A stretch of 48,749 nucleotides of DNA from an uncultured Candidatus Saccharibacteria bacterium. Its GTDB lineage: Bacteria > Patescibacteriota > Saccharimonadia > Saccharimonadales > CAZLKQ01. Below the pieces are notes generated by a model. The model saw nothing but the letters and a program-made list of their open reading frames with translations, did no database searches and was not told the DNA's origin. The stretch is taken from the NCBI GenBank assembly GCA_964560175.1, contig CAZLKQ010000001.1, forward strand, positions 1 through 48,749, given 5' to 3'. A program made the position numbers and the translations under genes. Below are positions 8,039 through 47,943 of this stretch, in pieces (position 1 is the stretch's first letter; each line of letters opens with the position of its first letter).

Positions 8039-8068
8039 TTGTCATAAAGCCTTGAGGGTTGGTATGAT
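8039..8068 (+). promoter_or_regulatory. Candidate promoter for the FAD oxidase gene
   Basis: TTGTCA, 18-nt spacer, TATGAT; GAGGT SD lies before the TTG start at 8088. Confidence 0.4.
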
Positions 8069-8087
8069 GTGTTAATGCTAGAGGTAA

Positions 8088-9801: not shown

Positions 9802-9886
9802 GGGGATGTGGCGGAATTGGTAGACGCGCTTGGTTTAGGACCATGTGTCTTAGGGCGTGGAGGTTCGAGTCCTCTCATCCCCACCA
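9802..9886 (+). tRNA. tRNA-Leu(UAG) with encoded CCA
   Basis: GGGGATGTGGCGGAATTGGTAGACGCGCTTGGTTTAGGACCATG...GGAGGTTCGAGTCCTCTCATCCCCACCA; anticodon loop TTTAGGA; its 5' 29 nt are identical to the other tRNA-Leu. Confidence 0.9.
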
Positions 9887-10040
9887 TCGATTCGACAAGC
9901 TCACCATAGGTGGGCTTTTTGAATTCATTTGGAGAGGACTCGAACCGATAGGCCGAATCTGCCAGCGGCAGATGAGGTTTTCCTCGCTTGGCTGAGCGAC
10001 GTGAGCCATAGGCTCAGATCGGAGCGAACATAATATTTGG

Positions 10041-10067
10041 CGAGTCCTCTCATCCCCACCATTCGAC
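10041..10067 (+). repeat. Direct repeat of the tRNA-Leu(UAG) 3' end (att-like scar)
   Basis: cgagtcctctcatccccaccat (22 nt) is identical to 9866-9887, followed by tcgac as after the tRNA. An inverted 15-nt copy of the T-arm lies within 9931-9946. Confidence 0.7.
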
Positions 10068-11708: not shown

Positions 11709-11714
11709 ACGAGC

Positions 11715-12152
11715 CTATTGAGCTCTCGCGAAGGAAATAAGGGCTATCCCGCTGACAACAAGTGCTATTCCTAAAAGATGATAGACGGTAAGTGTTTCTT
11801 TGAGAAAAAGTACGCTCAGTAAAGTCGACAAAGCGATAGATGCTCCGAAAACCAGAGGTGACACATAGGACAGGTTGCCGCCATACTGAAATATTTTGTG
11901 AAAGGCTATGGCAAACATTGCAATCCCAAGCCCAGCCAATGAAGCGTAGACAATGCCACTTCGAGTTGTCGTCAAAAGGTTTCCTTTATTTGCCACTTTG
12001 ATCATGAGAAGTGACAACGGGATAACTACTGCGACAAGGTTTACAATTACGGGGACTAATCCACCATCAATTTTTCCTCCGGCTTTAGCAGAGAAAAATT
12101 GGAAAAACGCATATCCGATGGTTGCTACAATAATTAAAATCCACATTGCCAT
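11715..12152 (-). CDS. Small EamA/DMT-like membrane transporter
   Basis: 145 aa, 4-5 hydrophobic helices, single EamA-like half-domain architecture. Confidence 0.55.
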   Translation of the reverse strand: MAMWILIIVATIGYAFFQFFSAKAGGKIDGGLVPVIVNLVAVVIPLSLLMIKVANKGNLLTTTRSGIVYASLAGLGIAMFAIAFHKIFQYGGNLSYVSPLVFGASIALSTLLSVLFLKETLTVYHLLGIALVVSGIALISFARAQ

Positions 12153-12153
12153 T

Positions 12154-12768
12154 TTATCCGGCTCTCATAAATTCGATCATGTTGTCGCGTTGAGTAGAGT
12201 CAATTTTTTGTTCTTCAGCAAGAATTGAGAATACTTCTGTCATAGTCATAGCAATATCTATCGTGTAGCCTGCTTTTTCCACAATATCCTTACCGCCCAT
12301 TTCTCTATCTAAAAGCAAATAAAATCCAACGACTTCAAGCTTACAAGCTTTAAATTGTTCAAGCGATTCCAATTTAGAATCACCTTTTGTGACGAGGTCA
12401 TCAATAATAGCGACCCTGTCGCCTTCTTTCCAATCGCCTTCAACCGACTTGCCCTTACCATGGTCTTTAATTTTGGCTCTTGGCTGGATCAATGGACGAT
12501 TTGTTTCATATCCAACTCCGGTAGCAATAGGTGTGCCTGCTTCAGGAATACCTGCAAGAAAAACGTTTTGAGGTAACCCCTCAAGCATTTCTGCATAAAT
12601 TGCGGTAATTTTATGGAAGGCTTCTGGATGTGATTGGACAATACGCAAGTCAATATAAAAAGGCGATACTACTCCGCTTTTGAGAGTAAATTCACCAAAA
12701 GTGAGTATTCCAAACTGGTGCAAGCTAACAGCCACATCACGTTTTGCCCTATCAGAAACTTTACTCAT
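12154..12768 (-). CDS. pyrE: Orotate phosphoribosyltransferase
   Basis: PRTase motif [14 protein letters not shown]. Start trimmed to ATG 12768 (GGAGGA SD), overlapping the pyrF stop as ATGAGTAA. Confidence 0.87.
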
Positions 12769-13561
12769 TCTGTCCTCCTCTAAATTTGTTAATTTCAGCG
12801 TGTAATTTTTTTGCTTCTTCGCGTGGGTTATCTGCAAAGATTATACCCCTTGCTGAATTTACAATTAGTCCATCACCCGAACTATTTTGCCCAGCTTCGA
12901 TAACTGCCTTTGCGTCGCCACCCTGTGCACCGACACCCGGGACAAGAAAAGTCATGTCGTCGCCGACTAATTCACGGATTTCACGCATTTCCTTCGGATA
13001 GGTTGCGCCGACCACAAGTAGACAATTTTTGTTGACGTTCCATTCGCTTGCTATTTTGCCTGCCAAATATTGGTAGTAGGGCTTTCCCTCGACCACAACG
13101 TCCTGAGTATCTTCCACCCCAGAGTTTGATGTGCGGCACAAAATAATCATCCCTTTGTCCTCTAAATTCAAAAAAGGCTCTAAGGCTTCTCGCCCCAAAT
13201 ATGGGTGGAGAGTGGTGGCGTCGGCGTTTAAATAATTGAAAATATAGTCTACGTACCCGTCATTGGTGTTGCCAATGTCAGCGCGTTTTGCATCAACAAT
13301 TACTGGTATTGCAGAGTGTTTATTGTGGATGTAGGCAATAGTTTGCTGCAACTGGGCGATGCCTTCGGCGCCATTGCCTTCGTAGAAAGCCGAGTTTGCC
13401 TTGAAAGCGCAGACTAAATCCGCAGTTGCGTCAACAATCTCCTTATTGAAATCAAATTGGCTTTTGCCAGCTGGCAATTTGTGGGTATCACTGTCCAAAC
13501 CGACACACAAAAGCGAATTATTCTTATCGACGCTTACACTCAGCTTCTTTAAAAAATTCAA
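12761..13561 (-). CDS. pyrF: Orotidine-5'-phosphate decarboxylase
   Basis: [18 protein letters not shown] motif; 266 aa. Confidence 0.85.
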
Positions 13562-14136
13562 ACGGCCGCCTTTTCTAACTCAGCTAAAACTTCAGTAACT
13601 AGTGCTTCTGAGTCATCGTTGAATATGATTTTCCCTTGACCTTCTTTATTTATCTTTCGAGCCAGTCCTTCAAGTTCGTCAGCTATGCCGCCAGTACCTG
13701 TTAAAACTCCAACGATTTTCTGCATATCAACAAGGTTAGTGAATTCGTTTAGACTTCCCCATCGACCCGATATTATTATGCCGGCATCACATGTAGCGGT
13801 GGATATTACATTTCGATACTTCATACAAGCCCTTTTATCCTTCGCAAAAGGGTAATCTTTTGGTATGTATATCAATTTATCATAGATAGTGAAGTCATCG
13901 TCGGGCCAATTCTGTTTTTGTCCATCTAGATCAAACATTGGTGAAAATCCCCACACTTCGACACCGTGCTTGCGAGCTTCTGAAGCGACTTCGTATGGCA
14001 GGCCCGAGCATGCACCGGTCACAATAATGAGTTTTGCCGCATACTTGCCAAGAACTTCCCCCAATTGTTTAGCTTTAGGCATAATTTCAGCCATTTCACC
14101 AGCTCCAGAACCAAAGACTCCAACCTTATATTTCAT
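13558..14136 (-). CDS. LOG/TIGR00725-like Rossmann-fold protein
   Basis: VGVFGSGAG N-terminus; TGTGGIADE resembles the PGGxGTxxE motif of the LOG family; 4-nt overlap with pyrF. Confidence 0.5.
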   Translation of the reverse strand: MKYKVGVFGSGAGEMAEIMPKAKQLGEVLGKYAAKLIIVTGACSGLPYEVASEARKHGVEVWGFSPMFDLDGQKQNWPDDDFTIYDKLIYIPKDYPFAKDKRACMKYRNVISTATCDAGIIISGRWGSLNEFTNLVDMQKIVGVLTGTGGIADELEGLARKINKEGQGKIIFNDDSEALVTEVLAELEKAAV

Positions 14137-14214
14137 GTATTGATCCTATTCAGCCTCTCAATATAGTCATAGTATTTAAGTAAGTATAACCAAATATGGT
14201 ATCTTAAGTCCAAG

Positions 14215-15303
14215 ATGGCTGATGGAGTAACTCAACCGGTATTTAATCCCTATAAGACGTTGAGTGAAAACCTGAACACTGATCGTCCCACCTATGAATT
14301 CCTTGGCTTTCAGGTGGATTCATTATTTGGTATCGCAGCCTGCCCTGGTACAGCTAACAGCGCTTACGTAAATGCAGCCTTTAGTAATGGTTTTGATATT
14401 GTTACTTATAAAACTCAGCGTAGCGTTCGTTTCCCATCCAACCCCTTTCCTAATGTGTTGCAGGTTGAGGTAGAGGGTCATCTGACGCCGGAGCGTGCAC
14501 AGGAGCCAATTGTCGGCTATTTACCACAATCGATAGACCGCAATAATTTCACGATAGCTAATTCCTGTGGCAATAACTGTGAAGGGCCAGAGTACTGGGT
14601 CGATGATGTGCGTAAGGCACTCGCACAAATCAGATCCGGTCAATTGCTGATAGTCAGCGTGGTTGGCACGATCAAAGAGGGTTTTGGTCCGGACGAATAT
14701 CACGATGATTTTGCCAAGGCCGCTGAGTTTGCCGCCCAGGCCGGCGCAAAAGTCATTGAGCTCAATTTGTCATGTCCAAATGTCGCCAGTGAAGGTGTCA
14801 TCTGTTACAGCCCAAAAGTTGTCGAGGATATAGCCCGGCGAGTCAAACAGCGAGTAGGCAACGATGTAAAACTACTCGCAAAAATCGGCTACTTTCGACC
14901 CACTCAGGAGGAACTGTTGCGTGAAGTAGTCCAGAGTATGGCACCATATATCTCGGGAATTACTGCGACCAACACCCTGCCCGCGCCGATAGTCGACCGA
15001 GATGGCAACCAGGCTTTCCCGGGTCCGGGGCGTGAAAAAGCCGGCATTTCCGGCTCAGCCATAAAATGGGCTGGGATTGAGATGACAAGTCGTCTGAAAA
15101 ACCTGCGAGAAACTTTAGGCGCAAGTTATGGGATTATTGGCGTAGGTGGTGTTATGGCTTTTCAAGATTATCAGGACTACATAAAGGCAGGTGCCGACGC
15201 AGTGCAGTCAGCGACCGGTGCCATGTGGAATCCCGAGCTAGCTCACAGCATAAAAAAGGCTTTAGCAGCTCCATTTCTAGCCCAAGCAACAAGTGCTCTC
15301 TAA
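14215..15303 (+). CDS. pyrD: Dihydroorotate dehydrogenase, class 1-like (catalytic Cys)
   Basis: ELNLSCPNV motif, C-terminal GVGGV FMN-binding region; 362 aa with an N-terminal extension; no adjacent pyrK. Confidence 0.78.
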   Translation: MADGVTQPVFNPYKTLSENLNTDRPTYEFLGFQVDSLFGIAACPGTANSAYVNAAFSNGFDIVTYKTQRSVRFPSNPFPNVLQVEVEGHLTPERAQEPIVGYLPQSIDRNNFTIANSCGNNCEGPEYWVDDVRKALAQIRSGQLLIVSVVGTIKEGFGPDEYHDDFAKAAEFAAQAGAKVIELNLSCPNVASEGVICYSPKVVEDIARRVKQRVGNDVKLLAKIGYFRPTQEELLREVVQSMAPYISGITATNTLPAPIVDRDGNQAFPGPGREKAGISGSAIKWAGIEMTSRLKNLRETLGASYGIIGVGGVMAFQDYQDYIKAGADAVQSATGAMWNPELAHSIKKALAAPFLAQATSAL

Positions 15304-15313
15304 AATCAGATCT

Positions 15314-16381
15314 TTAGCAGATTGGGATAGGCATTAGTACGCGGCCGCTGCCGGGTTCTGCTAGGACTTTACCGTGTTCGTAAACTAATTCACCTCGCAG
15401 AGCGACTTTCTCTATTTTGCCGACCACTTTCTGGCCGACAAAAGGCGACCAACCGCACTTAGTCTTAAGATCTTTATTGTCAATCTCATATTCTTCCATA
15501 GACACTTCGACGTAAGTATTTTTCTCCACGGGTAAACAAAGTAGTTTTGCGGGCTGGGTGACGCACTTGTCAATTATCTGCTTCCTAGTGATTTTGCCAT
15601 CGCGTTCGGCCGTAAGCAGTAGCGGCAATGTCGTCTCTAGGCCAGGCACACCAAACGCACCTTCTTCTTTTTCAGCTTTAGTATGCGGTGCGTGGTCTGA
15701 TTCGATCAGGTCAATATCATCGAGGTGCTCCCAGAGAAAATCAACATCGGCTTGGGACTTCAGGCTGGGCTTCATTTGTCCGTAAACTCCTAGGTGCTTC
15801 GCGTCCTTGTCTGTCAAAAATAGGTGGTGAGGAGTCACCCCACAAGTCACTCGCATACCTCCACGTTTAGCTTTGATTATTTTCTCTAAAACTTTGCGAC
15901 TCGGCATGTGGCAAATATGTACCGAACGATCCATACCTTTTAGGGATTCGATAGCAACATCGATCACATCTTCTTCTGCATGCAATAACACAGGTAGGTG
16001 CTTCGGCCACGCTTTGTAAATTTTTTGCAAATGCATTGGGTCCATCAGGAAATTGCCAGTTGTTTGGTTGAGATAAAGTTTTAGCCCTAGGGCATAAACC
16101 GCAGCCTCATCAAATTGGTCAAGGTTGTCCCCTTGTGACCCGAAGTAAAAGCCTATGTCGCTGACAGCTTTTTGCTTGGCGATATTTATTTTTTCTTGCA
16201 GTTTTTCGATCGAAAAGATCGGCTCAGCGTTGTTGGGCATGTCGACCACAGTTGTGAAGCCACCGGCTAGAGCGGCACTAGTACCAGTTAAAAAATCTTC
16301 TTTTTGTGTTTGTCCCGGGTCACGCAGGTGGACGTGGATGTCGATCAAACCAGGTAGAGTTATGTTTTCAATCATTAACAT
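15314..16381 (-). CDS. pyrC: Dihydroorotase
   Basis: Amidohydrolase metal site GLIDIHVHLRDPG; ESDHAPH; 355 aa. Confidence 0.83.
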   Translation of the reverse strand: MLMIENITLPGLIDIHVHLRDPGQTQKEDFLTGTSAALAGGFTTVVDMPNNAEPIFSIEKLQEKINIAKQKAVSDIGFYFGSQGDNLDQFDEAAVYALGLKLYLNQTTGNFLMDPMHLQKIYKAWPKHLPVLLHAEEDVIDVAIESLKGMDRSVHICHMPSRKVLEKIIKAKRGGMRVTCGVTPHHLFLTDKDAKHLGVYGQMKPSLKSQADVDFLWEHLDDIDLIESDHAPHTKAEKEEGAFGVPGLETTLPLLLTAERDGKITRKQIIDKCVTQPAKLLCLPVEKNTYVEVSMEEYEIDNKDLKTKCGWSPFVGQKVVGKIEKVALRGELVYEHGKVLAEPGSGRVLMPIPIC

Positions 16382-16409
16382 TAGAATAGCATTCTAGGAC
16401 TGTGGCATA

Positions 16410-17348
16410 ATGGCGCGAGTGAAACACGTCATTGAGGCCCAACAGTTCGACCCTGATTTCCTGAAGAGGCTTTTCTCCCGGGCCAGTGAAATGCAAGGTT
16501 TATTCAACGGCAATGGCAGTCGGGAACAGTTAAACAAGCTTTTGCCCGGTAAGATGATGTTCAATGTCTTTTATGAACCATCGACTCGTACACGAATGTC
16601 CTTTTCTGCCGCCGCCCAACACATGGGCATGGAAGTCGTAACAACTGAAAACGCCAAGGAATTTTCTTCGGCGGCTAAAGGTGAGACCTTGGAAGATACC
16701 ATCCGGACTCTGTGTGAGTATCATCCCGATGCCATAGTATTGCGCCACCATGAGAGCGGAGCGGCTGAGCGGGCGGCTGAAATCAGTACAGTTCCCATCA
16801 TCAACGCCGGAGATGGCAGCGGCCAGCACCCAACCCAGGCCTTGCTCGATCTCTACACTATCGAAAAAGAACTGGGACGATTGAAGGATCTGAAAATTAT
16901 CATCGGCGGTGACTTGTCCCATGGCCGGACAGCCCGCAGTCTGACTTATTTGCTGACAAAGTTCTCAGGTAATGAAATCACCTTTGTCTCACCTCAATCA
17001 CTGCGGATTGGGGAAGATATAAAGAAGCACCTAGCCAATACCAAAACACCATTTCAGGAAACCGAAGACCTTGAAACAGTCTTACCCAAAGCAGATGTAG
17101 TTTACTGGACTCGCGTCCAAAAAGAACGGCTTGCCGAAGGTGAAAAAGTAGAGAAGCATTTCATTATCGATATACCCCAGCTTCGTCTGATGAAAAAGGA
17201 CTCAATCCTGATGCATCCGCTACCCCGCGTCGACGAGATCACACCAGCAGTTGATAGCACTCCCCAAGCTGCATACTTTCGCCAAGCTGGCAATGGTATG
17301 TTTGTTCGCATGGCAATTCTCGAGTGGGTACTGGGATCAGAGGATTGA
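16410..17348 (+). CDS. pyrB: Aspartate carbamoyltransferase catalytic subunit
   Basis: STRTR, HPTQ and HPLPR motifs; 312 aa. Confidence 0.93.
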   Translation: MARVKHVIEAQQFDPDFLKRLFSRASEMQGLFNGNGSREQLNKLLPGKMMFNVFYEPSTRTRMSFSAAAQHMGMEVVTTENAKEFSSAAKGETLEDTIRTLCEYHPDAIVLRHHESGAAERAAEISTVPIINAGDGSGQHPTQALLDLYTIEKELGRLKDLKIIIGGDLSHGRTARSLTYLLTKFSGNEITFVSPQSLRIGEDIKKHLANTKTPFQETEDLETVLPKADVVYWTRVQKERLAEGEKVEKHFIIDIPQLRLMKKDSILMHPLPRVDEITPAVDSTPQAAYFRQAGNGMFVRMAILEWVLGSED

Positions 17349-33394: not shown

Positions 33395-33638
33395 GCTACT
33401 TAAAACTTTTGAATTTCCAGAAGCATGCGTTGGAAGTTGCCCCCAGATCGGCAGGTGGTTAAGCACCGTGGAACACTCAGATCCAGAAAGCTGGCGATAT
33501 ATAGAAGCAGTGAGTAAACTTAAAGGCTTGTCAGACATAGCCTGCGCTACTCAGTGTGGAGGACCGTGGGATGACCAAACAGAAATGGCCCCAGTCCTCT
33601 ATTGTTCAGGTAATCCAGGAAGTGATTACGGAGTTTAA
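33387..33638 (+). CDS. Orphan ORF B (83 aa), Cys-rich
   Basis: ATGACTGA overlap with ORF A; CVGSCP and CATQCGGP motifs. Confidence 0.5.
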   Translation: MTELLKTFEFPEACVGSCPQIGRWLSTVEHSDPESWRYIEAVSKLKGLSDIACATQCGGPWDDQTEMAPVLYCSGNPGSDYGV

Positions 33639-33639
33639 A

Positions 33640-34161
33640 ATGGCTGAGACACAAGAAATCGCCGTTGCCAGACCGCATATACCTTATACGGATGTTCCAG
33701 AATTAATAAAATGGCCATGCGAAAATTGCCCCAATAGGGTTAGTGTGACGGCTCGTATCAAGAGTGATTCTTTGCAAATTATGGACGGAGAATTGCAGAT
33801 TGAGGGAGTATGGGTGCCAGAAAATATTGATCCTCTGTCGCAACGAAAAGTAATTCTGGTCCAGTTAGGAAAGAAAGTAGCGGACTTATATGCTGAGGGA
33901 TGCACAGGTTCTCGTATCGAGGAAGATTGGTCACCGAATCATCGAGTCAGGCTGGATTACAACAGATGCAAATCCGAGTCGAGTGACGTACTCGAAAGAC
34001 TTGGTCGAGCCATGACCCCTGGCTGGGCTGGTTATTACGCTTTTGGGATGGGACTTATTAGGGAACAGATTTATACCGAGCCAGAACTTGCTATGTTAGC
34101 AGCGGAAAAAGCCAAATCCAAAGAAGAAGAGCGCCGAAGGCGAATGCGGGGACCTTACTAA
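33640..34161 (+). CDS. Orphan ORF C (173 aa) with PCxxCP motif and basic C-terminus
   Basis: GGAG SD, start AAATGGCTGAG; WPCENCPNRVSV resembles ORF A; its stop directly abuts the fusA ATG. Confidence 0.55.
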   Translation: MAETQEIAVARPHIPYTDVPELIKWPCENCPNRVSVTARIKSDSLQIMDGELQIEGVWVPENIDPLSQRKVILVQLGKKVADLYAEGCTGSRIEEDWSPNHRVRLDYNRCKSESSDVLERLGRAMTPGWAGYYAFGMGLIREQIYTEPELAMLAAEKAKSKEEERRRRMRGPY

Positions 34162-36231
34162 ATGGCTAAGACTCCGCTGGATAAAATCAGAAACATTGGG
34201 ATTATCGCGCATATCGATGCTGGTAAAACCACTACGACCGAAGCTGTTTTATACCGAACCGGACTAAAGCACAAGATCGGTGCTGTACACGAAGGTGAAA
34301 CTACTACTGACTGGATGGAGCAGGAACGCGAGCGTGGCATCACCATTACCTCGGCTGCTGTCACTTGTTTTTGGAAAGATCACCAGATCAATATCATCGA
34401 CACACCTGGCCATATCGACTTTACCGTCGAAGTCGAGAGATCTTTGCGCGTACTCGATGGCGCCATGACGGTTTTCGACGGGAAAATGGGAGTCGAGAGC
34501 CAGTCTGAAACAGTTTGGCGACAAGCCGACAAATACGGCGTGCCGCGAATCTGTTTTATCAACAAGATCAACCAAACCGGCGGTGATTTCTATAAATCCC
34601 TTGAGTCCATCCATACGCGTCTGACCAAACACGCTTACCCGATCCACCTGCCGATCGGCTTTGAGCAGTCAATCAATGGTGTCATCGACCTGATCGACAT
34701 GAAAGCCTACACCTACAAGGACTTCACTGACAAAGAATTGGTCGTCGGCGAAATACCCGAAGACATGAAAGAAAAGGCCGCCAAATACCGCTCTCATCTG
34801 GTCGAGGCTGCTCTGGGTGCCGATGACGACCTACTGATGAAATACTTGGACGGCACCGAAATCACCAATGAAGAGCTCAAATCTTGCATCCGCAAATCGA
34901 CGATCAAAGGTGACTTTTTCATCGTCTCGGGCGGCGATGGCCGGGGTGTGATCGTCGAGAAACTGCTCGATCTAATTGTTGACTATCTGCCAAATCCGCT
35001 GGAAGCCGGCTCAGTCTTTGGCACTCATCCCAAAACAGGTGATGAACTGGAGCGCAAACCCGATGTCAATGAACCGTTTTCCGCTCTGGCATTCAAGATC
35101 GCCACTGACCCCTTTGTCGGCAAACTGGCCTTTTTCAGAGTTTATTCCGGCTCGATGAAAGCCGGCAGTTACATCATGAATGCGGCAACCGGTGACAAAG
35201 AACGGGTCGGCCGGATCTTGCGCATGCACGCCAACGACCGGACCGATGTCGAGACGATCGAAGCCGGCGATATCGCCGCCGCGGTTGGCCTCAAAGGCAC
35301 AACTACCGGCAATACATTGTGCGACCCTGCTAACCCAATAATTTTAGAGTCGATCGACTTCCCAGACCCACCAGTTTCGATTGCGATAGAGCCCAAAACC
35401 AAGGCTGACCAAGAAAAAATGTCGATTGCCCTGCAGCGCCTAGCCGAGGAAGATCCGACTTTCCGAGTCCACAGCGACCACGAAACCGGCCAGACTATCA
35501 TTTCTGGCATGGGCGAGCTGCACCTGGAGATCATTGTCGATCGAATGAAAAGAGAATTCAAAGTCGAAGGTAGTGTAGGCCAACCACAAGTCGCTTACCG
35601 GGAGACCATTAAAGTTCAGACTGAGATAGAGGGTAAATATATCAAGCAAACTGGCGGTCGCGGCCAATATGGCCATGTCGTACTCCGGCTCGAGCCGCAA
35701 GAAGCCGGAGTAGGCTTCGAATTTGTCGATGCCATCAAGGGTGGTGTCGTGCCACAAGAGTACCGAAGCGCTGTCAAAAAAGGTATCGAAGATGCCATGG
35801 CAAATGGCGTCATTGCCGGCTACCCAGTAGTTGATGTCAAAGTAACTTTGACTGACGGCTCGTACCACGAAGTCGACTCCTCCGAGCTAGCCTTCACAAT
35901 GGCCGCTAGCCAAGCTTTACAAGCCGGAGTCAAAAAGGCTAACCCAGTACTACTGGAGCCGGTAATGAAAGTCGAAGTAGTGACTCCTGAGGAATTTATG
36001 GGTGACGTCATCGGCGACCTGAACGGCCGTCGCGGCCGGATCGAAGAAATGGAAGACCGGGCCGGCGTCAAAGTCGTCCACGCTTTCGTGCCACTTGGTG
36101 AAATGTTTGGCTACACCAATGATATCCGTTCGATGAGTCAAGGCCGAGCCAGCTCAACAATGGAGCTTGACCATTACGGCGAAGTACCGAATAATGTGGC
36201 CGAAGAAATCATTGCAAAACAAACTAAGTAG
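34162..36231 (+). CDS. fusA: Elongation factor G
   Basis: [14 protein letters not shown], NKxD; 689 aa. Confidence 0.97.
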
Positions 36232-36248
36232 TCATATTTTAGGTATAG

Positions 36249-36578
36249 ATGTCAAAAGATGTAGAAATTGAAGATAGGGCACAAGGCTACATCGATGCCT
36301 GTGCTTTCCTTGATCTAGAATATGCTAACTGTGACATAGTCGCTCAGGAATTTCGGGAAGTTTATGAGCGACGTAGTGTAGAACTGCTCGGCGCTTTTCA
36401 TGTGGACACGCTGAGAGTTACCACAAAAATGGGTGCCCAAATCCTACATACTACAGGGGTATTAGTGTCGATGGGTCCATCAATAGTGCATAGGCGTAAT
36501 AAATTTAGGCAAGTTATCGATGATGAGTCAGCCGGCCTGGCTGAAGCAGAAGAAATAATTGCCAAAAAAGGCAAATAA
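36249..36578 (+). CDS. Orphan ORF D (109 aa), apparently derived from the fusA 3' end
   Basis: C-terminus AEEIIAKKGK* versus [13 protein letters not shown]; N-terminus VEIEDRAQG..CAFLDLE versus [20 protein letters not shown]. Confidence 0.5.
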   Translation: MSKDVEIEDRAQGYIDACAFLDLEYANCDIVAQEFREVYERRSVELLGAFHVDTLRVTTKMGAQILHTTGVLVSMGPSIVHRRNKFRQVIDDESAGLAEAEEIIAKKGK

Positions 36579-37130: not shown

Positions 37131-37159
37131 TTTACAACTGGGCTCAACCCCTGTACAAT
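37131..37159 (+). promoter_or_regulatory. Candidate promoter for tuf
   Basis: TTTACA, 17-nt spacer, TACAAT; AGGAGA SD lies before ATG 37237. Confidence 0.55.
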
Positions 37160-37236: not shown

Positions 37237-38421
37237 ATGGCAAATTTTGATCGCAGCAAACCACATGTAAACGTCGGTACCATGGGACACGTCGACCACG
37301 GCAAAACCACCCTGACTGCCGCTATTACGCACACCCTGAGCAAGCGATTGCCATCAGATATCAACAAACCGATCAATTTTGACCAGATCGACAACGCGCC
37401 CGAGGAAAAAGAACGCGGCATCACGATTGCTGTTTCACATCTGGAATATGAGTCTGAGAAGCGCCACTACGCCCACGTCGACATGCCCGGTCATGCCGAC
37501 TATATAAAGAATATGATCACAGGTGCCGCCCAGATTGATGGCGCCATTCTGGTTGTCTCAGCTGCTGACGGCCCAATGCCACAGACCCGTGAACATGTCC
37601 TACTGGCCCGCCAAGTCGGTGTGCCCTCGATCGTTGTCTTTCTAAACAAAATGGACATGGCTGATCCAGAACTAGTGGAGCTCGTCGAAGCCGATGTCCA
37701 GGAACTATTGACCAAGTACGAGTATGACGGTGACAAAACTCCGATTATCAAAGGTTCCGCCAAGAAAGCTCTCGAAGGCGATGAGAAGGAAATGGACAAC
37801 ATCATGGAGCTGGTCAAGGCTATCGATGAGCACATTCCTGAGCCAAAGCGTGATCTAGACAAACCATTCCTGATGGCCATCGAAGACGTTTTCTCGATCA
37901 AAGGCCGGGGCACCGTCGCTACAGGACGTGTCGAGCAAGGTATCGTCAAAGTCAATGAAACGGTCGAAATCGTCGGGATTCGTGATACTAAGAAATCAGT
38001 AGTTACCGGTGTTGAGATGTTTCGAAAAAACCTCGATCAAGGCCAGGCTGGCGACAATGTCGGTATTTTGCTACGGGGAATTGAAAAAGAAGATATCGAG
38101 CGCGGCCAAGTTTTGGCAAAACCCGGCACTATCACTCCACACACCGAATTTGACGCTGAAGTCTACATCCTGACAAAGGAAGAGGGCGGTCGTCACACGC
38201 CGTTTTTCAAAGGCTACAAGCCACAATTTTACTTCCGCACCACTGATGTGACTGGTGAAGTTGAGCTACCGGCTGATACAGAAATGGTCATGCCAGGTGA
38301 CACCATTACCTTCAAGGTCAAATTGATCCAAGCTATCGCTATGGACCAAGGCCAACGTTTTGCTATCCGCGAAGGCGGCAAGACCGTCGGCGCTGGCGTC
38401 GTAACGAAAATTAACAAATAA
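37237..38421 (+). CDS. tuf: Elongation factor Tu
   Basis: [18 protein letters not shown]; 394 aa. Confidence 0.97.
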
Positions 38422-38428
38422 TTTTCGA

Positions 38429-38458
38429 GTAATTAGTAACTAGGAATTAGCAATTAGT
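38429..38458. repeat. One-armed heptamer array GNAAYTA x4
   Basis: gtaatta gtaacta ggaatta gcaatta; near-identical to the array at 9735-9770 (gtaatta gtagcta ggaatta ggaaata). Confidence 0.7.
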
Positions 38459-38743
38459 ATGACAGAAACTTCACGACAACAGACCCCAGAAGAAATGACT
38501 CGATCAAGAATTGCTCTTTACCGTCATGCTGCTGCTGGTGGATACGATGTTCATCAATGGGGTACCAAGGAAGGCGAGATATATCATGAAGTTTTTGCGC
38601 AATCCGGTGATGAAATCCCAGATGCAAATTTTACTTATCTAGAGCCAATTTTGGAGCATGAAATAGTATATCTTGGCTCGTTGACTCCCAAAGGAGCAAA
38701 AGAGATTGCTGATCAATTGGAGGAGATTTTACTAAATGGCTGA
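38459..38743 (+). CDS. Orphan ORF F (94 aa)
   Basis: No family recognised; its stop lies inside a copy of the rpsJ start sequence. Confidence 0.5.
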   Translation: MTETSRQQTPEEMTRSRIALYRHAAAGGYDVHQWGTKEGEIYHEVFAQSGDEIPDANFTYLEPILEHEIVYLGSLTPKGAKEIADQLEEILLNG

Positions 38744-38755
38744 GGAAGTAAAATC

Positions 38756-39037
38756 ATGAGTTTGACGACAACTGATTTTCAAGAAATTCGAACTATTGTT
38801 CGTGAGGAAGTTGAAAGCATTGTAGAAGCGAAATTGAATCCACTCAGAAATGAGCTACAGGCTCTTCGTAATGATATAAAAGAAATTTACAACAGGCTGG
38901 TTAAACTCGAATCGCCTGTATTTACAAATAAGGAATTTAATAAATTACCACTAGAGAAAAGACTTCTGACATTAAATTCTGATTTGTTGGCGATGGCTAA
39001 AGAAATTGGTTTATCACTTCCAAGGAACACAAATTAA
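38756..39037 (+). CDS. Orphan ORF G (93 aa), coiled coil, paralog of ORF 7565
   Basis: MSLTTTDFQEIRTIVREEVES versus MNLTNDDLKSIKKVVSDSIDE. Preceded by the 7-codon remnant MAEEVKS*, coupled through an ATGA overlap. Confidence 0.55.
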   Translation: MSLTTTDFQEIRTIVREEVESIVEAKLNPLRNELQALRNDIKEIYNRLVKLESPVFTNKEFNKLPLEKRLLTLNSDLLAMAKEIGLSLPRNTN

Positions 39038-39391
39038 ATGGCTGAGGAAATTCGCGTACAACAGATGGATGAGCCACAGGATTGGGTGAAGAAACTGCGT
39101 GGAGCTGACAAGTTAGCATACGATGAGGTTCGCGAGGAGAGTATCGGAGAAATAGCAGAGGTTTACAAACAGCGGCTAAAAGAATTTGTTGATGAAATTA
39201 CTGAGATTGGAGCGGAGGAAGCCATCGCTCATAGAGCAACAAGGCTAGCAACTAATACCAGAGACTCTTTTGAAGCCGGCATCCAAGTTGGCATGGACAG
39301 CGAACGTGAGTATCGGCAACAACTGGCTCGTAGAGAAAGAGAAGAGCATGCCTCCTTTCAGAGAAATGTCATCGGAAATTGGGCTGGCTGA
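39038..39391 (+). CDS. Orphan ORF H (117 aa), acidic, helical
   Basis: Starts with ATGGCTGAGGAA, identical to the rpsJ start; TGATG overlap with rpsJ. Confidence 0.55.
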
Positions 39392-39729
39392 TGGCTGAGG
39401 AAACTGCAAAAGTAGTTCCAGCTGGCGTACCAAGGATCAGGATTCGACTGAAGGCTTATGATCACAAAGTGATCGACCTGTCGGCCAAGCAAATTATCGA
39501 TACTGCGGAGCGCACTGGTGCTACAGTGGCCGGACCGATTCCGTTGCCAACCAAGCGGAGTGTATACACGGTTATCAAGAGTCCTCATGTCTATAAAAAG
39601 GCTCGTGAGCAATTCGAAATGCGCGTACACAAACGACTGATTGATATCAGTAATCCGACTCCAAAAACCATCGATTCTCTCCAGAATCTGTCTCTACCTG
39701 CCGGCTGCGACGCCGAAATCAAAATGTAG
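39391..39729 (+). CDS. rpsJ: 30S ribosomal protein S10
   Basis: [21 protein letters not shown]...GPIPLPT; start trimmed to MAEE. Confidence 0.93.
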
Positions 39730-39878
39730 TGGCAATAACTCCCTTTTGTGACAGGTGCGGCGAGGAACTAAAGAAATTTGGGGCAATCCTGTTTAGCCCG
39801 CCAAATGCTAAAAGTGTTGTCAAAAAACTACATGTATGCGTTGATTGCTATAAAGAAATAGTTAAAACTTTCAAATAG
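39729..39878 (+). CDS. 49-aa zinc-ribbon micro-protein
   Basis: GTG start overlapping the rpsJ TAG (TAGTG); [13 protein letters not shown]...VCVDCYKE has two CxxC pairs; below the ORF-track cutoff. Confidence 0.45.
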
Positions 39879-39958
39879 GTATTGCTCATGCTTGCAAATC
39901 GGGTAAGTATATACCAAGCTAATCGAATGAATGAAAAAAAAGGTTAAAGTAGTAATTT

Positions 39959-40336
39959 ATGACCGCTGAACATAATATTAACCAAGCGCAGCTATATTAT
40001 GAAATACGTGAGCAATTTACAGAAATGCGCGAATCATTTTCAGCTGAGCGGACAGCATACTTAGAACTATTACTCTCCTTGGAAGGTGTTCCCGTAAGTG
40101 CTTCGTATAGGTTTCGGTATGTCAAAGAACCCGGGGAGTTTGGTCGCGGTGGACATCTAACAGACTTATTACAACCTGTTGATAGGCAAGCTGTGAAAGT
40201 AGTCATCTCGGAAGTAGGTGAATCAAATTTAGGTGTGCGTATAGTAAGAGAAAACGGATCACCAAATAATTTTGTTGAGATTGTTGCTTTTGACGACTTT
40301 GAATTGTTAGAGATAAGTAGCAACAACGCAAACTAA
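39959..40336 (+). CDS. Orphan ORF J (125 aa)
   Basis: No family recognised; AT-rich; flanked by the 16-nt repeat GTATTGCTCATGCTTG. Confidence 0.5.
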   Translation: MTAEHNINQAQLYYEIREQFTEMRESFSAERTAYLELLLSLEGVPVSASYRFRYVKEPGEFGRGGHLTDLLQPVDRQAVKVVISEVGESNLGVRIVRENGSPNNFVEIVAFDDFELLEISSNNAN

Positions 40337-40472
40337 TCGCAAAAGTATTGCTCATGCTTGTCACATATTGACAGTGATATAATTTTGGTATGAATCCCGT
40401 TAGAACTAAGTATTTTATCGAAGACAAAACCTGCCGCTTTTTAATTAGCGTAAAAAACGGAGTTCTAACGGG

Positions 40473-41511: not shown

Positions 41512-41766
41512 ATGACTAACCGTAAGCGTGAATCAAACAGTGTCTATTTTCTGAAAATTGTCTTTTTCTTCGTGATTGGCACCATTTGGATTCGCTTTGG
41601 GGCCGATTCCAGAACTGGAGGAGGTATTCCAATTGGTTTGCTGTTGGGGATTATTTTTGCCAATCACGACCACTTCCAAATCGACCAAAAAATTGAATTT
41701 GCGATCCTGCTGATTGCTGCCATCCTAAGCTTTGTTTTCCCTATCGGCGCAGTCATAGTCGTCTAA
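41512..41766 (+). CDS. Orphan ORF N (84 aa), membrane protein
   Basis: Three hydrophobic segments; start ATGACTAAC echoes the HIT gene start ATGACTAAT. Confidence 0.5.
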   Translation: MTNRKRESNSVYFLKIVFFFVIGTIWIRFGADSRTGGGIPIGLLLGIIFANHDHFQIDQKIEFAILLIAAILSFVFPIGAVIVV

Positions 41767-42024: not shown

Positions 42025-42648
42025 ATCAAAGCTATCATTGGCACCAAGATCGGTATGACCCAGATCCTGACAGAGGATGGTACGGCTGTGCCTGTAACCT
42101 TGGTCCATGCCGAGCCAAACGTCGTTACCCAGAACAAAACAGATGAAGCCAATGGCTACAACGCCGTCCAGCTAGGCGCCGGCCGAGCCAAAAGACCCGC
42201 CAAACCCCAAGAGGGACATGCCAAGAAAGCCGGTCTAGACTTTACCCCGCGGATTATGCGCGAGGTACGCGACCTCGAGTTTGACCCCGAAACTATAAAA
42301 CCCGGAGCCAAAGTCGAAGTCACGAACTTTGAAGTCGGCGACGAAGTCGATGTCACGGGAACTAGCAAAGGTAAAGGCTTCGCCGGAACCGTCAAACGTC
42401 ATAATTTTCTAACCAGCCCAAAATCTCACGGCGGTAAAGGCTATATCCGAAAACCTGGCTCGATCGGCTCTATGTATCCGCAAAAAGTCATGAAGGGCAA
42501 ACGAATGGCCGGCCGCATGGGCTTTGATAAAACTACCATCGTCGATCTCAAAGTCGTGCTAGTAGACGCCGAAAATAATTTACTCGGTATTAGAGGCGCC
42601 TTGCCTGGGCCGCGCAAAGGCACAGTCATAGTGCGAGGTTCTAAATAA
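42025..42648 (+). CDS. rplC: 50S ribosomal protein L3, probable non-AUG (ATC) start
   Basis: The conserved N-terminus (I)[13 protein letters not shown] is in frame upstream of the first ATG (42055); AGGAG SD lies 6 nt before ATC 42025; in-frame TAG at 42013. Confidence 0.88.
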
Positions 42649-45237: not shown

Positions 45238-45321
45238 TGTAAAGTTCATAAAGTTAAAAGTTCATAAAGTTATGTTCACTCAGAGGTCACCTTCTACTTT
45301 ATACCTTCTACTTTCTACTAG
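45238..45321. repeat. Palindromic element of the TAAAGTTCA family
   Basis: gtaaagttca taaagtt aaaagttca taaagtt ... ccttctacttt ataccttctacttt ctactag; followed by ctagaAAATCGGAGATTT and the rpsC ATG. Confidence 0.75.
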
Positions 45322-45975: not shown

Positions 45976-45980
45976 TATGA

Positions 45981-46073
45981 GTTATAAAGTCCATAAAGTT
46001 ATAAAGTCCATAAAGTCTAGCTTAAGATTAGGGTTTCAAGCTTGCAACTTTCAACTTGCAACTTTCAACTTGA
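45981..46073. repeat. Palindromic element: (ATAAAGTYC)x4 left arm, (GCAACTT TCAACTT)x2 right arm
   Basis: ataaagtcc ataaagtt ataaagtcc ataaagtc ... gcaactt tcaactt gcaactt tcaactt. Confidence 0.8.
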
Positions 46074-46822: not shown

Positions 46823-47094
46823 TGTCTCTGCGTGTAATCACCGGCATTGTGGTCTCGGACAGAACGCCAAAGACGATCATCGTTAAGGTCGATCGTACCA
46901 AGCGCCACCCGATTTATTCGAAAAACTATCTGTTGAGCAAAAAATTTACCGCCCACGATGAAGCTCGTGAAGCAAAAATTGGCGACAAAGTACAGATCAT
47001 CGAGTCGACGCCAATCAGTAAGACCAAACGCTGGCGGCTACAGGCAGTCGTTGAAAAAGCTAAAACTTTGGACAGCACTGAGGCGGTGTCATGA
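46822..47094 (+). CDS. rpsQ: 30S ribosomal protein S17
   Basis: GIVVSDRTPKTIIVKVDRTKRHPIYSK. Confidence 0.93.
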   Translation: MSLRVITGIVVSDRTPKTIIVKVDRTKRHPIYSKNYLLSKKFTAHDEAREAKIGDKVQIIESTPISKTKRWRLQAVVEKAKTLDSTEAVS

Positions 47095-47104
47095 CTTCAT
47101 CACT

Positions 47105-47214
47105 CCCATTCACCATTCACCATTATCCATTATCCATACATTATCCATTTACCATTAACCGTGAACGGACAACGGTAAACGCTTGGAAAGCGGAAAACGG
47201 TAAACGGATAATGG
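47105..47214. repeat. Palindromic heptamer-repeat element of the CCATT/AAYGG family
   Basis: cccattc accattc accatta tccatta tccatac ... ccattaaccgtgaacgg ... acaacgg taaacgc ... aaaacgg taaacgg ataatgg. Confidence 0.8.
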
Positions 47215-47233
47215 CGACCAGAGGGAGCTACCA

Positions 47234-47602
47234 ATGATACAGCAAGAATCCCGACTAAAAGTAACCGATAACAGCGGAGCCAAAGAGATCCTTTGTATCC
47301 GCGTGCTCGGCGGATCAGGCCGCCGCTACGCCCGTGTTGGTGATGTGATTACCGCCAGCGTAAAGGTCGCAACACCAAATGCGGCAATCAAGAAAAAAGC
47401 CGTAGTCCAAGCCGTGATAGTCCGAACCCGTGGCATTACCAAGCGCAAAGATGGTTCAACCATCCGTTTTGATGACAACGCGGCGGTTATCATCGGCGAA
47501 GACAAGCTGCCTAAAGCTACGCGGGTATTCGGGCCGGTACCCAGGGAGCTGCGCGATCGCGGCTATATGAAGATAATCTCACTTGCGCCGGAGGTCTTAT
47601 AA
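47234..47602 (+). CDS. rplN: 50S ribosomal protein L14
   Basis: [18 protein letters not shown]. Confidence 0.96.
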
Positions 47603-47943
47603 TGGCGACCACCAAGATCTTCAGAATAAAACTGCGTGTTGGTGATGAAGTAATGGTGCGATCCGGTGCCCTCAGGGGTAAAACCGGCAAAGTTACCGCT
47701 ATCCATCCGCGTGCCAACAAAGTCACAGTCGAGGGAATCAATATATTTAAAAAACACCAGAAGCCCAACCAGCAGTATCCCAAAGGCGCCATTCTAGAAA
47801 AAACCCGGCCGATTGGTGTTTCCAAGGTCGGCATCGTCCGTCCAGGTGCAAAGAATTTGGCCAGCCGCATCGGTTACATGGTTAAAAAAGACGGCACTAA
47901 AACCCGCGTTTACCGCCAAGCATCCAACAAGGAGATCAAGTAA
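47602..47943 (+). CDS. rplX: 50S ribosomal protein L24
   Basis: KOW motif GDEVMVRSGALRGKTGKV; TAATG overlaps. Confidence 0.93.
   Translation: MATTKIFRIKLRVGDEVMVRSGALRGKTGKVTAIHPRANKVTVEGINIFKKHQKPNQQYPKGAILEKTRPIGVSKVGIVRPGAKNLASRIGYMVKKDGTKTRVYRQASNKEIK

Follow-up and report, generated by a model that had tools for sequence, protein, structure and literature searches.

Within the 48.7-kb contig analysed here (48,749 nt, hereafter the window), one 12-nt start sequence recurs three times upstream of and at rpsJ, the gene for ribosomal protein S10, and we read these copies as having two origins: the small gene G would have been inserted at the start of its resident neighbour H, leaving a duplicate behind, and H and rpsJ would belong to two families that begin alike, with no cassette-capture system involved. 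We give this reading a probability of about 0.5. The preliminary description of this DNA had proposed repeated insertion at, or duplication of, the 5' end of rpsJ, with the S10 initiation region regenerated each time. Insertion with duplication is supported for one event, in which a 15-mer brackets G, and a 16-mer around ORF J adds a second unit, whereas the three serial regenerations reduce to one clear event and two natively similar starts. Both insertions, of G and of J, are deduced from the footprints that they would have left.

The str-S10 cluster has one of the most conserved gene orders in bacteria, and in Saccharibacteria the fusA/tuf, tuf/rpsJ and rpsJ/rplC junctions hold variable sets of small unknown genes. 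If G was inserted as we propose, the contig would reveal at single-nucleotide resolution how a small gene can enter an essential operon harmlessly: duplication of the initiation region leaves a stranded copy that provides the newcomer's stop and Shine-Dalgarno context, and translational coupling keeps the essential gene expressed after its own promoter is lost. Should such footprints prove recurrent, they would help to explain how ultra-small, naturally competent episymbionts gain and express lineage-specific small proteins; should they not, the case is a useful caution that identical starts can come from families natively beginning alike.

Three copies of one start sequence

The 12-mer ATGGCTGAGGAA occurs exactly three times in the contig, at 38736, 39038 and 39391, always on the + strand and always at a start codon, as had been described. 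The third copy is the genuine S10 start, opening an ORF of 112 aa with a match to Pfam Ribosomal_S10 (E = 1e-36); the second opens ORF H (MAEEIRV...); and the first opens a seven-codon mini-ORF, MAEEVKS*, whose TGA does overlap the ATG of G at 38756. Copies 1 and 2 have 15 nt in common, confirmed as TAAATGGCTGAGGAA at 38733 and 39035 and consisting of TAA plus the 12 nt, copies 2 and 3 have 13 nt in common (ATGGCTGAGGAAA), and copy 3 agrees with the other two over only 12-13 nt. The shorter ATGGCTGAG is found six times in the contig, four of them at ORF starts, namely the three copies here and the start of ORF C at 33640. Coordinates of all features are collected in Table 1.

Table 1. Genes, small ORFs and boundary repeats around rpsJ and fusA in the window.
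Feature	Position	Strand	Remarks
ORF C	33640..34161	+	from ATG 33640; stop abuts fusA ATG (TAAATG)
ORF D C-terminal tail AEEIIAKKGK*	36543..36578	+	mimics EF-G tail at 36196-36231
tuf (EF-Tu)	37237..38421	+	AGGAG Shine-Dalgarno; promoter-like site 37131-37159; no terminator-like site after it
ORF F, 94 aa	38459..38743	+	true orphan; coding-like codon usage; GC3 0.28
Left copy, 15-nt direct repeat TAAATGGCTGAGGAA	38733..38747	+	contains 12-mer copy 1 (38736-38747)
Mini-ORF MAEEVKS*, 7 codons	38736..38759	+	TGA overlaps G ATG (ATGA)
ORF G, 93 aa	38756..39037	+	predicted long helix and second helix, coiled-coil-like; GC3 0.27
Right copy, 15-nt repeat	39035..39049	+	gives G stop codon (TAA) and putatively native H start (12-mer copy 2, 39038-39049)
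ORF H, 117 aa	39038..39391	+	MAEEIRV...; helical hairpin; stop TGA overlaps rpsJ ATG (TGATG)
Copy 3, rpsJ start ATGGCTGAGGAAA	39391..39403	+	13-nt identity with H start
rpsJ (ribosomal protein S10)	39391..39729	+	Pfam PF00338, E = 1.1e-36 over residues 17-111; operon context
ORF I, 49 aa	39729..39878	+	zinc-ribbon-like; GTG start overlaps rpsJ stop
Left copy, 16-nt direct repeat GTATTGCTCATGCTTG	39879..39894	+	exact, unique; brackets ORF J unit
ORF J, 125 aa	39959..40336	+	lies between the two 16-mers
Right copy, 16-nt direct repeat GTATTGCTCATGCTTG	40345..40360	+	exact

Chance predicts 0.01 copies of ATGGCTGAGGAA in the window, and none of 100 shuffles reached three, which upholds the claim that the copies are not accidental; nor is the 12-mer a common start context, as these three are its only occurrences in the contig. 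In a set of 48 genes, the exact direct repeats that flank a gene mostly measure 5-8 nt; for G the figure is 15 nt, for H 13 nt and for J 16 nt. Pure coincidence, or an assembly artefact, could appeal to the frequency of Met-Ala-Glu starts and to the metagenomic origin of the contig, but a bracketing repeat of at least 13 nt has a null probability of 4e-4 per gene and yet four were seen, and the shuffles argue the same way. Assembler k-mers, moreover, are longer than 13-16 nt, so that such repeats cannot chain contigs, and we regard this explanation as hardly credible.

Two further candidates were rejected. A tandem duplication of rpsJ fails on the dissimilarity of the F, G and H units and rpsJ beyond the 13-15-mers, and the idea that the units are non-coding fails on codon usage, every small ORF scoring best in its own frame against the usage of the contig. 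The small ORFs are probably real genes, and F, G, H, J and others gave no meaningful family in Pfam, PHROGs, NCBIfam or PADLOC.

Origins of the copies at G, H and rpsJ

The preliminary description rightly had copy 2 opening H, but G and H are not the orphans it took them for. G is one of some 30 related proteins (the query and 29 homologs, 36-59% identical, with 21 invariant columns) and aligns over its full length to the family motif MSLTTxDLQEIR...ALRNDIKEIY...LPR; H has nine homologs; and a word-index search with F found F only. Homologs of G are found both upstream and downstream of rpsJ as well as in non-ribosomal contexts, and a -10 box of its own precedes each ATG by 6-10 nt. Seven copies in other loci carry no flanking repeat of at least 9 nt, and G copies elsewhere lack the 12-15-mer motif. 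The window's G seems no longer to have that promoter spacing and to be coupled to the operon instead. F and G also have a lower GC3 (0.27-0.28) than H (0.42) and rpsJ (0.48). Because the 15-mer brackets exactly the G unit and G is a stand-alone small gene in many unrelated contexts, the arrangement fits a single duplicative insertion into the F/H junction, and we put even odds on copy 1 being a true duplicate.

In such an event the stand-alone gene G would have been inserted 12 nt into the F/H junction, duplicating 15 bp (TAAATGGCTGAGGAA), and the likeliest route would be staggered illegitimate or short-homology recombination between DNAs of differing gene content. The left copy would have stayed with F, whose stop codon (TGA, 38741-38743) lies inside copy 1, and its GAGGA, 9 nt before the G start, can serve as a predicted Shine-Dalgarno site for G; the mini-ORF can then be read as a duplicate of the H start left stranded. 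The right copy would have restored the H start and supplied the stop codon of G, which in the window is 2-3 residues longer than every homolog listed and so reaches the TAA of the right-hand repeat. Saccharibacteria are able to take up DNA, which is then integrated by recombination (PMC10633639).

H belongs to a small Saccharibacteria family of helical proteins of about 110 aa, marked by W16, Y28, R32, FEAGIQVG and a terminal GNWAG*. Its nine homologs come from an exhaustive HMMER search (phmmer E = 2e-26 to 2e-4), the best aligning residues 1-117 of H with 1-113, and the alignment is full-length, including the N-terminus, with the conserved features present. The AF2 model is a helical hairpin (pLDDT 84) for which Foldseek found no PDB match, a word-index search found only H itself, and a metagenome scan for the family returned one partial locus. 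From residue 1, H aligns with homologs that start MAEGVRTIQ, MAGEAIVQQ and MTGEVYVQQ, its first 11 residues being homologous to the family N-termini; at the DNA level these starts read ATG GCG GGA GAA (locus L093), ATG ACG GGT GAA (L087) and ATG GCT GAA GGT (L084), and that of the window ATG GCT GAG GAA. Homologs of H occupy the tuf-rpsJ interval in at least four other Saccharibacteria contigs representing three distinct loci (L084/L085/L086, L087 and L097), and in L084/L085 and L097, though not in L087, they stand directly upstream of rpsJ, with an ordinary spacer and their own Shine-Dalgarno site.

Since the family N-termini read MAEG, MAGE or MTGE and the homologs sit between tuf and rpsJ, copy 2 may well be native to H, for which we see roughly a one-in-two chance judging from these alignments. 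The aligned N-termini and the shared location in L084/L085, L087 and L097 therefore speak for H as a resident syntenic gene and not a captured cassette, and the earlier suggestion that H acquired its start from rpsJ does not hold up. What was duplicated is likelier to have been the start of H than that of S10.

The serial alternative, in which G and then H were inserted into the first rpsJ codons, each duplicating the S10 initiation region and both ORFs borrowing the S10 start, would account for two units delimited by three exact copies, and it can draw on two cases described below, an ORF wedged independently into the rpsJ 5' end of L087 and the copy of the EF-G C-terminal tail on ORF D, a mirror-image case at the fusA 3' end. 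It is nevertheless quite improbable: the first residues of H belong to its own family, H homologs elsewhere precede rpsJ, have a Shine-Dalgarno site of their own and an ordinary spacer and need no borrowed start, copies 1 and 2 share the TAA that copy 3 lacks, and a check for repeated rpsJ starts found them in 0 of about 55 relatives.

The S10 protein of the window is 76-88% identical to other Saccharibacteria S10 proteins, whose starts in relatives read MAEA, MADA or MPEE, and compared with these its MAEE is near the family norm. Because both families begin Met-Ala-(Glu/Gly)-(Glu/Ala), we infer that the 13-nt identity of the H and rpsJ starts is largely a matter of ancestry or shared start preference plus a coincidence of synonymous codons, perhaps tightened by short conversion. 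From the codon usage of the contig, the probability of identical codons given that both start MAEE is 0.086, and given the family starts we estimate the prior for the exact 13-nt identity at only about 1-2%; some copying from one start to the other may yet have taken place. In L084 the first 10 nt are common to H and rpsJ (ATGGCTGAAG) despite a 121-nt spacer, and the synonymous Glu codon of the two starts co-varies, being GAA/GAA in L084 and GAG/GAG in the window; in L087 the two starts differ (7/12 nt).

These shared starts would also suit a selected module, in which the 12-mer serves as a preferred place of initiation (Met-Ala-Glu-Glu, with GAGG inside it) or is bound by a translational regulator, and is kept identical at three starts by selection or short-tract gene conversion, with no footprint of insertion at all. 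Met-Ala opens about 35% of the Shine-Dalgarno-preceded ORFs in these loci and MAE 7%, L084 shows the shared start and the co-varying Glu codon, the GAGGA of copy 1 is well placed as the Shine-Dalgarno site of G, and the rplX start is copied upstream of rplN into a mini-ORF with the same ATGA architecture. We consider this unlikely, as the contig has no further occurrence of the exact 12-mer, MAEE opens just 2 of 855 sampled Saccharibacteria ORFs, and the H and rpsJ starts of L087 disagree. RNA structure around the three copies does not exceed that of shuffles (z = 0.2-0.7), the sole feature near them being an A/U-rich stem of 9 bp (GAUUUUACU/AGUAAAAUC) with copy 1 in its loop. The shared TAA, the extended C-terminus of G and the unrelated 16-mer at ORF J would also be left unexplained.

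Boundary repeats elsewhere in the contig and in relatives

ORF J, which has no match in the family libraries or by tblastn against the fetched loci, lies between two copies of an exact 16-mer that differs in sequence from the repeat of the G unit. Because this unique 16-bp repeat surrounds ORF J, the same kind of event as at G is suggested to have happened at least twice in the region. At fusA the earlier account was accurate: AAATGGCTGAG lies at 33638-33648, at the start of ORF C, and the fusA start TAAATGGCTAAGAC at 34159. Between the ORF C start, ATGGCTGAGAC, and that of the neighbouring fusA, ATGGCTAAGAC, 10 of 11 positions agree. At the other end of fusA, the tail of ORF D would be a mirror-image boundary duplication; mimicry of the EF-G tail downstream of fusA is strong in the window only, with a weak echo in L085. 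The fourth bracketing repeat is the 13-mer ATAATGGCGACCA, whose occurrences at 47208 and 47599 stand on either side of the core gene rplN; it copies the rplX start into a mini-ORF ending ATGA on the next start. It cannot be a cassette insertion and may instead reflect some other process, or a function, by which initiation regions are copied.

No close relative of the same species or genus was present in the databases searched, the best L4 identity being 51%. Across Saccharibacteria the tuf-rpsJ and rpsJ-rplC spacers range from about 80 nt to 5.5 kb. L087 offers an independent case: a 105-aa ORF starts GTGGCTGAA right behind the S10 promoter and Shine-Dalgarno site and is followed by TAATG-rpsJ (ATGGCCGAA), so that it is wedged between the S10 promoter with the first three codons and rpsJ. 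Direct repeats of at least 13 nt are not in excess in the variable spacers of relatives, and the few present bracket no ORFs; the only other neighbours with the same start are low-complexity MAKK ribosomal proteins.

Several of these results weigh against the duplicative insertion of G itself: the rplN-flanking ATAATGGCGACCA cannot be explained in the same way, the G copies of other genomes lack flanking direct repeats, the spacers of relatives hold no surplus of such repeats, and no enzyme that makes 15-16-bp duplications is visible. A bolder generalisation, which we think very unlikely, would be that Saccharibacteria capture small genes, independently of any recombinase, in the first few codons of genes that are essential and highly expressed (rpsJ, H, fusA, rplX). 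Such a 'start-codon integron', duplicating 12-16 bp of the initiation region each time, would let new small proteins be tried out within the ribosomal super-operon. Translation of the newcomer would begin immediately at a start of proven use, leaving the essential gene intact and translationally coupled to it. The L087 ORF, the 16-mer at ORF J, the EF-G tail on ORF D and the rplX-start mini-ORF upstream of rplN are compatible with it.

Known systems and the expression of rpsJ

The closing remark of the preliminary description, that no recombinase is visible, is borne out across the 48.7 kb: Pfam scans of the ORFs found no transposase, integrase or serine recombinase. An inverted-repeat scan of 38400-39800 detected no arms at the unit boundaries and no attC-like structure, RNA/DNA folding at the junctions stayed within the range of shuffles, and inspection of the J unit showed no inversion between its ends. 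Like integron gene cassettes, the window has promoterless small ORFs arranged head-to-tail upstream of a fixed site, a resident upstream signal and boundary repeats, but it lacks intI and attC hairpins, its repeated core consists of the region around a start codon, and one 'cassette', H, is a vertically conserved rpsJ neighbour. A dedicated site-specific system, with the 12-15-mer as an att-like core, the recombinase elsewhere in the genome, and G and H captured at the rpsJ start for integron-like expression, could point to exact repeats precisely at the unit boundaries, to the many genomic positions of the G family and to spacer content that is highly variable across the phylum. Set against this are the missing enzymes, the missing attC-like or terminal inverted repeats, the different sequence of the repeat at ORF J, the G copies elsewhere that have neither motif nor flanking repeats, the synteny of H, which is not mobile here, and the lack of viral relatives of the G and H families (searches of IMG/VR gave no match for either), and we judge such a system extremely improbable.

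Target-site duplications of transposable elements or MITEs resemble the window in that exact direct repeats of 13-16 bp directly flank units of 0.3-0.45 kb. They differ from it in that terminal inverted repeats and a transposase are wanting here, the repeat lengths vary (15, 13 and 16 nt), the insert is one ordinary small gene, and other copies of G have no flanking repeats. With phage morons the G family shares its autonomy in relatives, where its members have their own -10 box and lie between differing conserved neighbours, but the setting of G is cellular and not viral.

A further comparison is with the footprints of illegitimate or homology-facilitated recombination in naturally transformable bacteria, which show short direct repeats or microhomology at the insertion joints. 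What the window shares with them is a discrete gene unit of foreign appearance, placed between conserved genes and within a short exact direct repeat. Described joints of illegitimate recombination usually show 3-10 nt of microhomology, and recipient DNA is deleted rather than duplicated. The window, by contrast, duplicates 15-16 bp that hold a translation start functional on both sides. As in those footprints, mobile-element machinery is missing, and the host phylum is naturally competent (PMC10633639).

A GTTACR motif stands 20-48 nt upstream of rpsJ in about 30 of 42 Saccharibacteria loci, and in TM7x the region upstream of rpsJ, a predicted strong promoter, works as a promoter in reporter cassettes (PMC10633639). 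In the window the motif is missing and rpsJ has no Shine-Dalgarno site, and a + strand consensus scan from tuf to rpsJ (38421-39391) found neither promoter-like nor terminator-like sites; the chance that the promoter or leader spacer of rpsJ was lost in this lineage seems to us evenly balanced. Because F to I are linked by overlapping or abutting stops and starts (the F stop lies inside the mini-ORF, followed by ATGA between mini-ORF and G, TAAATG between G and H, TGATG between H and rpsJ, and TAGTG between rpsJ and I), transcription of rpsJ probably starts at the tuf promoter and its translation probably relies on termination-reinitiation coupling, as far as these junctions indicate. Such overlaps recall translational coupling in ribosomal-protein operons, except that here the chain crosses non-ribosomal accessory ORFs and a seven-codon mini-ORF, and replaces the separate rpsJ promoter of relatives. 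Overlap-type junctions of the same kind also join the core genes rplC-D-W-B.

Repeats of the rpsJ start sequence in the spacer upstream

This contig, a piece of chromosome, comes from an uncultured Saccharibacteria-type bacterium (CPR/Patescibacteria). Saccharibacteria supply all of its nearest genomes among 185,579 species representatives, with an L4 identity of only ~50%; identity to relatives is ~85% for EF-Tu and 76-88% for S10. The gene order is rpoB - rpoC - rpsL - rpsG - [oB, oB2, oC] - fusA - [oD, oE] - tuf - [oF, mini-ORF, oG, oH] - rpsJ - [oI, oJ, oK, oL, HIT protein, oN] - rplC - rplD - rplW - rplB, where oB to oN are small ORFs (ORF C is oC, and so on). Across Saccharibacteria tuf and rpsJ lie 78 to ~2,300 nt apart, and rpsJ and rplC ~600 to ~5,500 nt; the range in other CPR lineages is 44-436 nt. 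Variable spacers filled with genes thus occur phylum-wide at these junctions. By contig codon usage each small ORF scores best in its own reading frame; none of them has a family in Pfam, PHROG, NCBIfam or PADLOC.

The 48,749-nt window contains the 12-mer ATGGCTGAGGAA exactly three times, always at a start codon; the expected count is 0.01, and three copies were reached in 0/100 shuffles. The preliminary description, which had placed three such copies at starts upstream of and at rpsJ and held that they were not due to chance, was accurate on both points. Copies 1 and 2 have 15 nt in common, including the upstream TAA, and copies 2 and 3 have 13 nt. We favour, with a probability of roughly 0.5, a reading in three parts: the starts of H and rpsJ are natively similar, a single duplicative insertion put G into the start of H, and a lineage-specific loss of the rpsJ promoter left everything chained by translational coupling.

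Coordinates of the features discussed, in the window
Feature	Position	Strand	Detail
tRNA-Leu(TAG), final 22 nt	9866-9887; 10041-10062		exact repeat, 175 nt downstream
Pyrimidine cluster	10767-17348
ORF C	33640-34161
EF-G C-terminus	36196-36231
ORF D end	36543-36578
tuf promoter	37131-37159		promoter-like site
tuf	37237-38421
ORF F	38459-38743		stop codon TGA, 38741-38743, inside copy 1
Inverted repeat	38725-38755		9 bp, perfect
15-mer	38733-38747; 39035-39049		direct repeat
Copy 1	38736	+	opens 7-codon mini-ORF (38736-38759), MAEEVKS-stop; TGA overlaps ORF G ATG
ORF G	38756-39037
Copy 2	39038	+	opens ORF H (39038-39391)
Copy 3	39391	+	opens rpsJ (39391-39729); Pfam Ribosomal_S10, E = 1e-36
ORF I	39729-39878
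16-mer	39879-39894; 40345-40360		direct repeat
ORF J	39959-40336
ORF N	41512-41766		84 aa
rplC start region	42025-42057
Short repeats, rplV-rpsC and rpsC-rplP	45241-45272; 45980-46016; 46041-46072
48-codon ORF, rpsQ-rplN	47091-47237
rplX start 13-mer	47599-47611

The inverted repeat GATTTTACT / AGTAAAATC encloses copy 1, its 13-nt loop holding the ORF F stop codon and a GAGGA motif; the overall fold there is no better than that of shuffles.

ORF H and the likeness of its start to that of rpsJ

ORF H had no homolog by word-indexed search and nine by exhaustive HMMER search, full length and aligned from residue 1, the best at 52% and 46% identity. Family N-termini read MAEGVRTIQID, MTGEVYVQQVD, MAGEAIVQQIS and MRGEVRAQ, and C-termini end ...VGNWAG-stop; at the DNA level the starts are ATG GCG GGA GAA (relative locus L093), ATG ACG GGT GAA (L087), ATG GCT GAA GGT (L084) and ATG GCT GAG GAA (window). 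The MAEE start of H is therefore native to its family. The nearest homologs lie between tuf and rpsJ, arranged as tuf - terminator - H - 121-nt spacer - rpsJ (L084, L085, L086), H - ~240 nt - rpsJ (L097) or tuf - H - three small ORFs - rpsJ (L087), with more distant members at other genome positions. ORF H is thus a resident neighbour of rpsJ and not, as had been proposed, an orphan cassette opened by a captured S10 start. AF2 confidently predicts a helical hairpin for it (pLDDT 84), for which no PDB match was found. In L084 an 11-nt direct repeat, AAAATCACAAA, flanks the entire H unit of tuf terminator, promoter and H ORF (645-655 and 1123-1133).

S10 proteins of relatives begin MAEA, MADA or MPEE, and in L084 the starts of H (ATGGCTGAAGG) and rpsJ (ATGGCTGAAGC) have 10 nt in common despite the promoter-bearing spacer between them. 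Among Shine-Dalgarno-preceded ORFs of the fetched loci ~35% open with Met-Ala and 7% with MAE, and under contig codon usage two MAEE proteins would use identical codons with a probability of 0.33 x 0.51 x 0.51 = 0.086. Our rough prior for the 13-nt identity is ~1-2%, low yet not negligible, the feature having been picked by scanning. The Glu codon co-varies between the two starts (GAA/GAA in L084, GAG/GAG in the window), which leaves room for short conversion or shared selection.

ORF G and the question of capture

ORF G (93 aa) has ~30 homologs at 36-59% identity, with strongly conserved motifs (MSLTxxD...ALRNDIKEIY...LPR) and an AF2-predicted fold of a long helix and a second helix. Family members lie upstream of rpsJ (L004, L005, L011, L020, L047), downstream of it (L046, L051, L081) or in unrelated contexts (L083, L098, L100, L102), some genomes having two, and each copy in relatives carries its own -10-like box 6-10 nt 5' of the ATG. 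G is therefore a small gene that stands alone and is widely scattered. Its copies elsewhere lack flanking repeats. Alone among the members listed, the window G extends 2-3 codons past the family end ...LPR(x)-stop, terminating at the TAA of the right-hand 15-mer.

The 15-mer brackets the G unit precisely, its left copy containing the F stop and its right copy the G stop and H start; with G and one 15-mer taken out, F and H would overlap by 8 nt, a plausible junction. GC3 is 0.27-0.28 for F and G, against 0.42 for H and 0.48 for rpsJ. Of the 48 genes examined, most have exact repeats of 5-8 nt between their two flanks; the repeat reaches 15 nt around G, 16 nt around oJ and 13 nt around both H and rplN (null probability of at least 13 nt, 4e-4 per gene). 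We read copy 1 as a real duplicate. Just downstream of rpsJ/oI the exact 16-mer GTATTGCTCATGCTTG, absent from the rest of the window and from 97 fetched related loci, brackets the ORF J unit and looks like a second footprint of duplicative insertion. We infer at least two such insertions of small gene units (G, oJ) within a 2-kb stretch. Of the idea of repeated duplication at the S10 start, what is supported is one duplication around the G unit, at a target better taken as the H start; the starts of H and rpsJ are natively similar.

Part of the earlier proposal, that cassettes are captured at the S10 start, is still alive. An independent case is L087: GTGGCTGAA, placed immediately after the S10 promoter and Shine-Dalgarno site, opens a 105-aa ORF (7088-7405) that ends TAATG on rpsJ (ATGGCCGAAGCA; ATGGCCGAA) and intervenes between the first S10 codons and the rest of rpsJ. 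The ORF C start matches the fusA start at 10/11 positions. An inserted 198-aa ORF between rpsJ and rplC in L001 is enclosed by a duplication of the 3' half of an oN-family gene (84 nt, 83% identity; 8051-8134 and 8786-8868). The ORF D end, AEEIIAKKGK-stop, mimics the EF-G C-terminus at 8/10 residues with several synonymous differences, a match in the top 3 of ~52,000 neighbouring ORF pairs. Against capture, an exact copy of the 13-mer ATAATGGCGACCA, which contains the rplX start, lies 26 nt before the core gene rplN and 391 nt before the rplX start itself, in a mini-ORF that also ends ATGA; a cassette insertion is ruled out there. Also against capture, none of ~55 relatives repeats its own rpsJ start, and their variable spacers show no enrichment in such repeats.

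In L085 the EF-G tail is echoed more weakly (AEDVIAKN... after ETIIAKSSK-stop, TTATTGCCAAAA in common). Lys/Glu-rich K-E-x-K-stop tails (KETK, KENK, KEAK, KGDK) end many Saccharibacteria ribosomal proteins and EF-G (many loci, L003-L061; window rplD and fusA ends), and unrelated neighbouring proteins are therefore alike at 5-7 of their last 10 residues. A 48-codon ORF, with an ATGA overlap to each neighbour, fills the 139-nt rpsQ-rplN spacer, and ATAATGGCGACCA opens the last part of this ORF. The spacer also consists of short CA-rich and GA-rich repeats that could pair.

A scan around the locus found no terminal inverted repeats or attC-like structures, the contig encodes no integrase or transposase, confirming that no recombinase is visible, and neither the G nor the H family has viral relatives. 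A dedicated capture system is very unlikely; with the H start native, one duplicative insertion, that of G, is what stands of serial cassette formation. Saccharibacteria have natural competence and use recombination to integrate DNA (PMC10633639). The most economical mechanism would be a staggered recombination event, illegitimate or over short homology, between DNA molecules unlike in gene content.

Expression of rpsJ and other features of the contig

In ~30/42 Saccharibacteria loci a conserved GTTACR motif 20-48 nt upstream of rpsJ is followed by an AGGAG Shine-Dalgarno site (more fully GTTACR...(G)CACA...AGGAG; L001-L063, L084-L087), and probably represents either the -10 region of the rpsJ promoter or a leader. 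In strain TM7x, reporter cassettes are driven by the promoter region of rpsJ (PMC10633639). The motif is displaced to -340 in L087, and both motif and AGGAG site are absent upstream of rpsJ in the window, where the + strand has no promoter-like or terminator-like sites between tuf and rpsJ. F, the mini-ORF, G, H, rpsJ and I are chained through ATGA, TAAATG, TGATG and TAGTG junctions, and the GAGGA within copy 1 lies 9 nt 5' of the G ATG. Given the missing motif, the uninterrupted tuf-rpsJ interval and these stop/start junctions, rpsJ is probably transcribed from the tuf promoter and translated by coupling.

Directly upstream of rplC lies ORF N, apparently a membrane protein (...HDHFQIDRKIEY... 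in relatives) and a phylum-typical unknown gene within the S10 cluster, conserved in ~30 Saccharibacteria loci. The rplC gene seemingly has a non-canonical ATC start (AGGAGA, 5 nt, ATC): ATC AAA GCT ATC ATT GGC ACC AAG ATC GGT ATG matches the relatives' N-terminus MKALITRKVGM, and L3 would be 10 residues shorter if begun at the first in-frame ATG/GTG/TTG. The rplV-rpsC and rpsC-rplP spacers are filled by short tandem or near-tandem repeats (AAAGTTCATAAAGTTA, AGTTATAAAGTCCATAAAGT, CTTGCAACTTTCAACTTG). The repeated tRNA-Leu(TAG) end, CGAGTCCTCTCATCCCCACCAT, has the look of an att-type remnant, left at the tRNA 3' end by integration or excision. The pyrimidine cluster encodes PRPP synthase, an OPRT-like protein, OMP decarboxylase, dihydroorotate dehydrogenase, a dihydroorotase-like amidohydrolase and aspartate carbamoyltransferase, and is unusual because de novo nucleotide synthesis is, to our knowledge, usually missing from Saccharibacteria.
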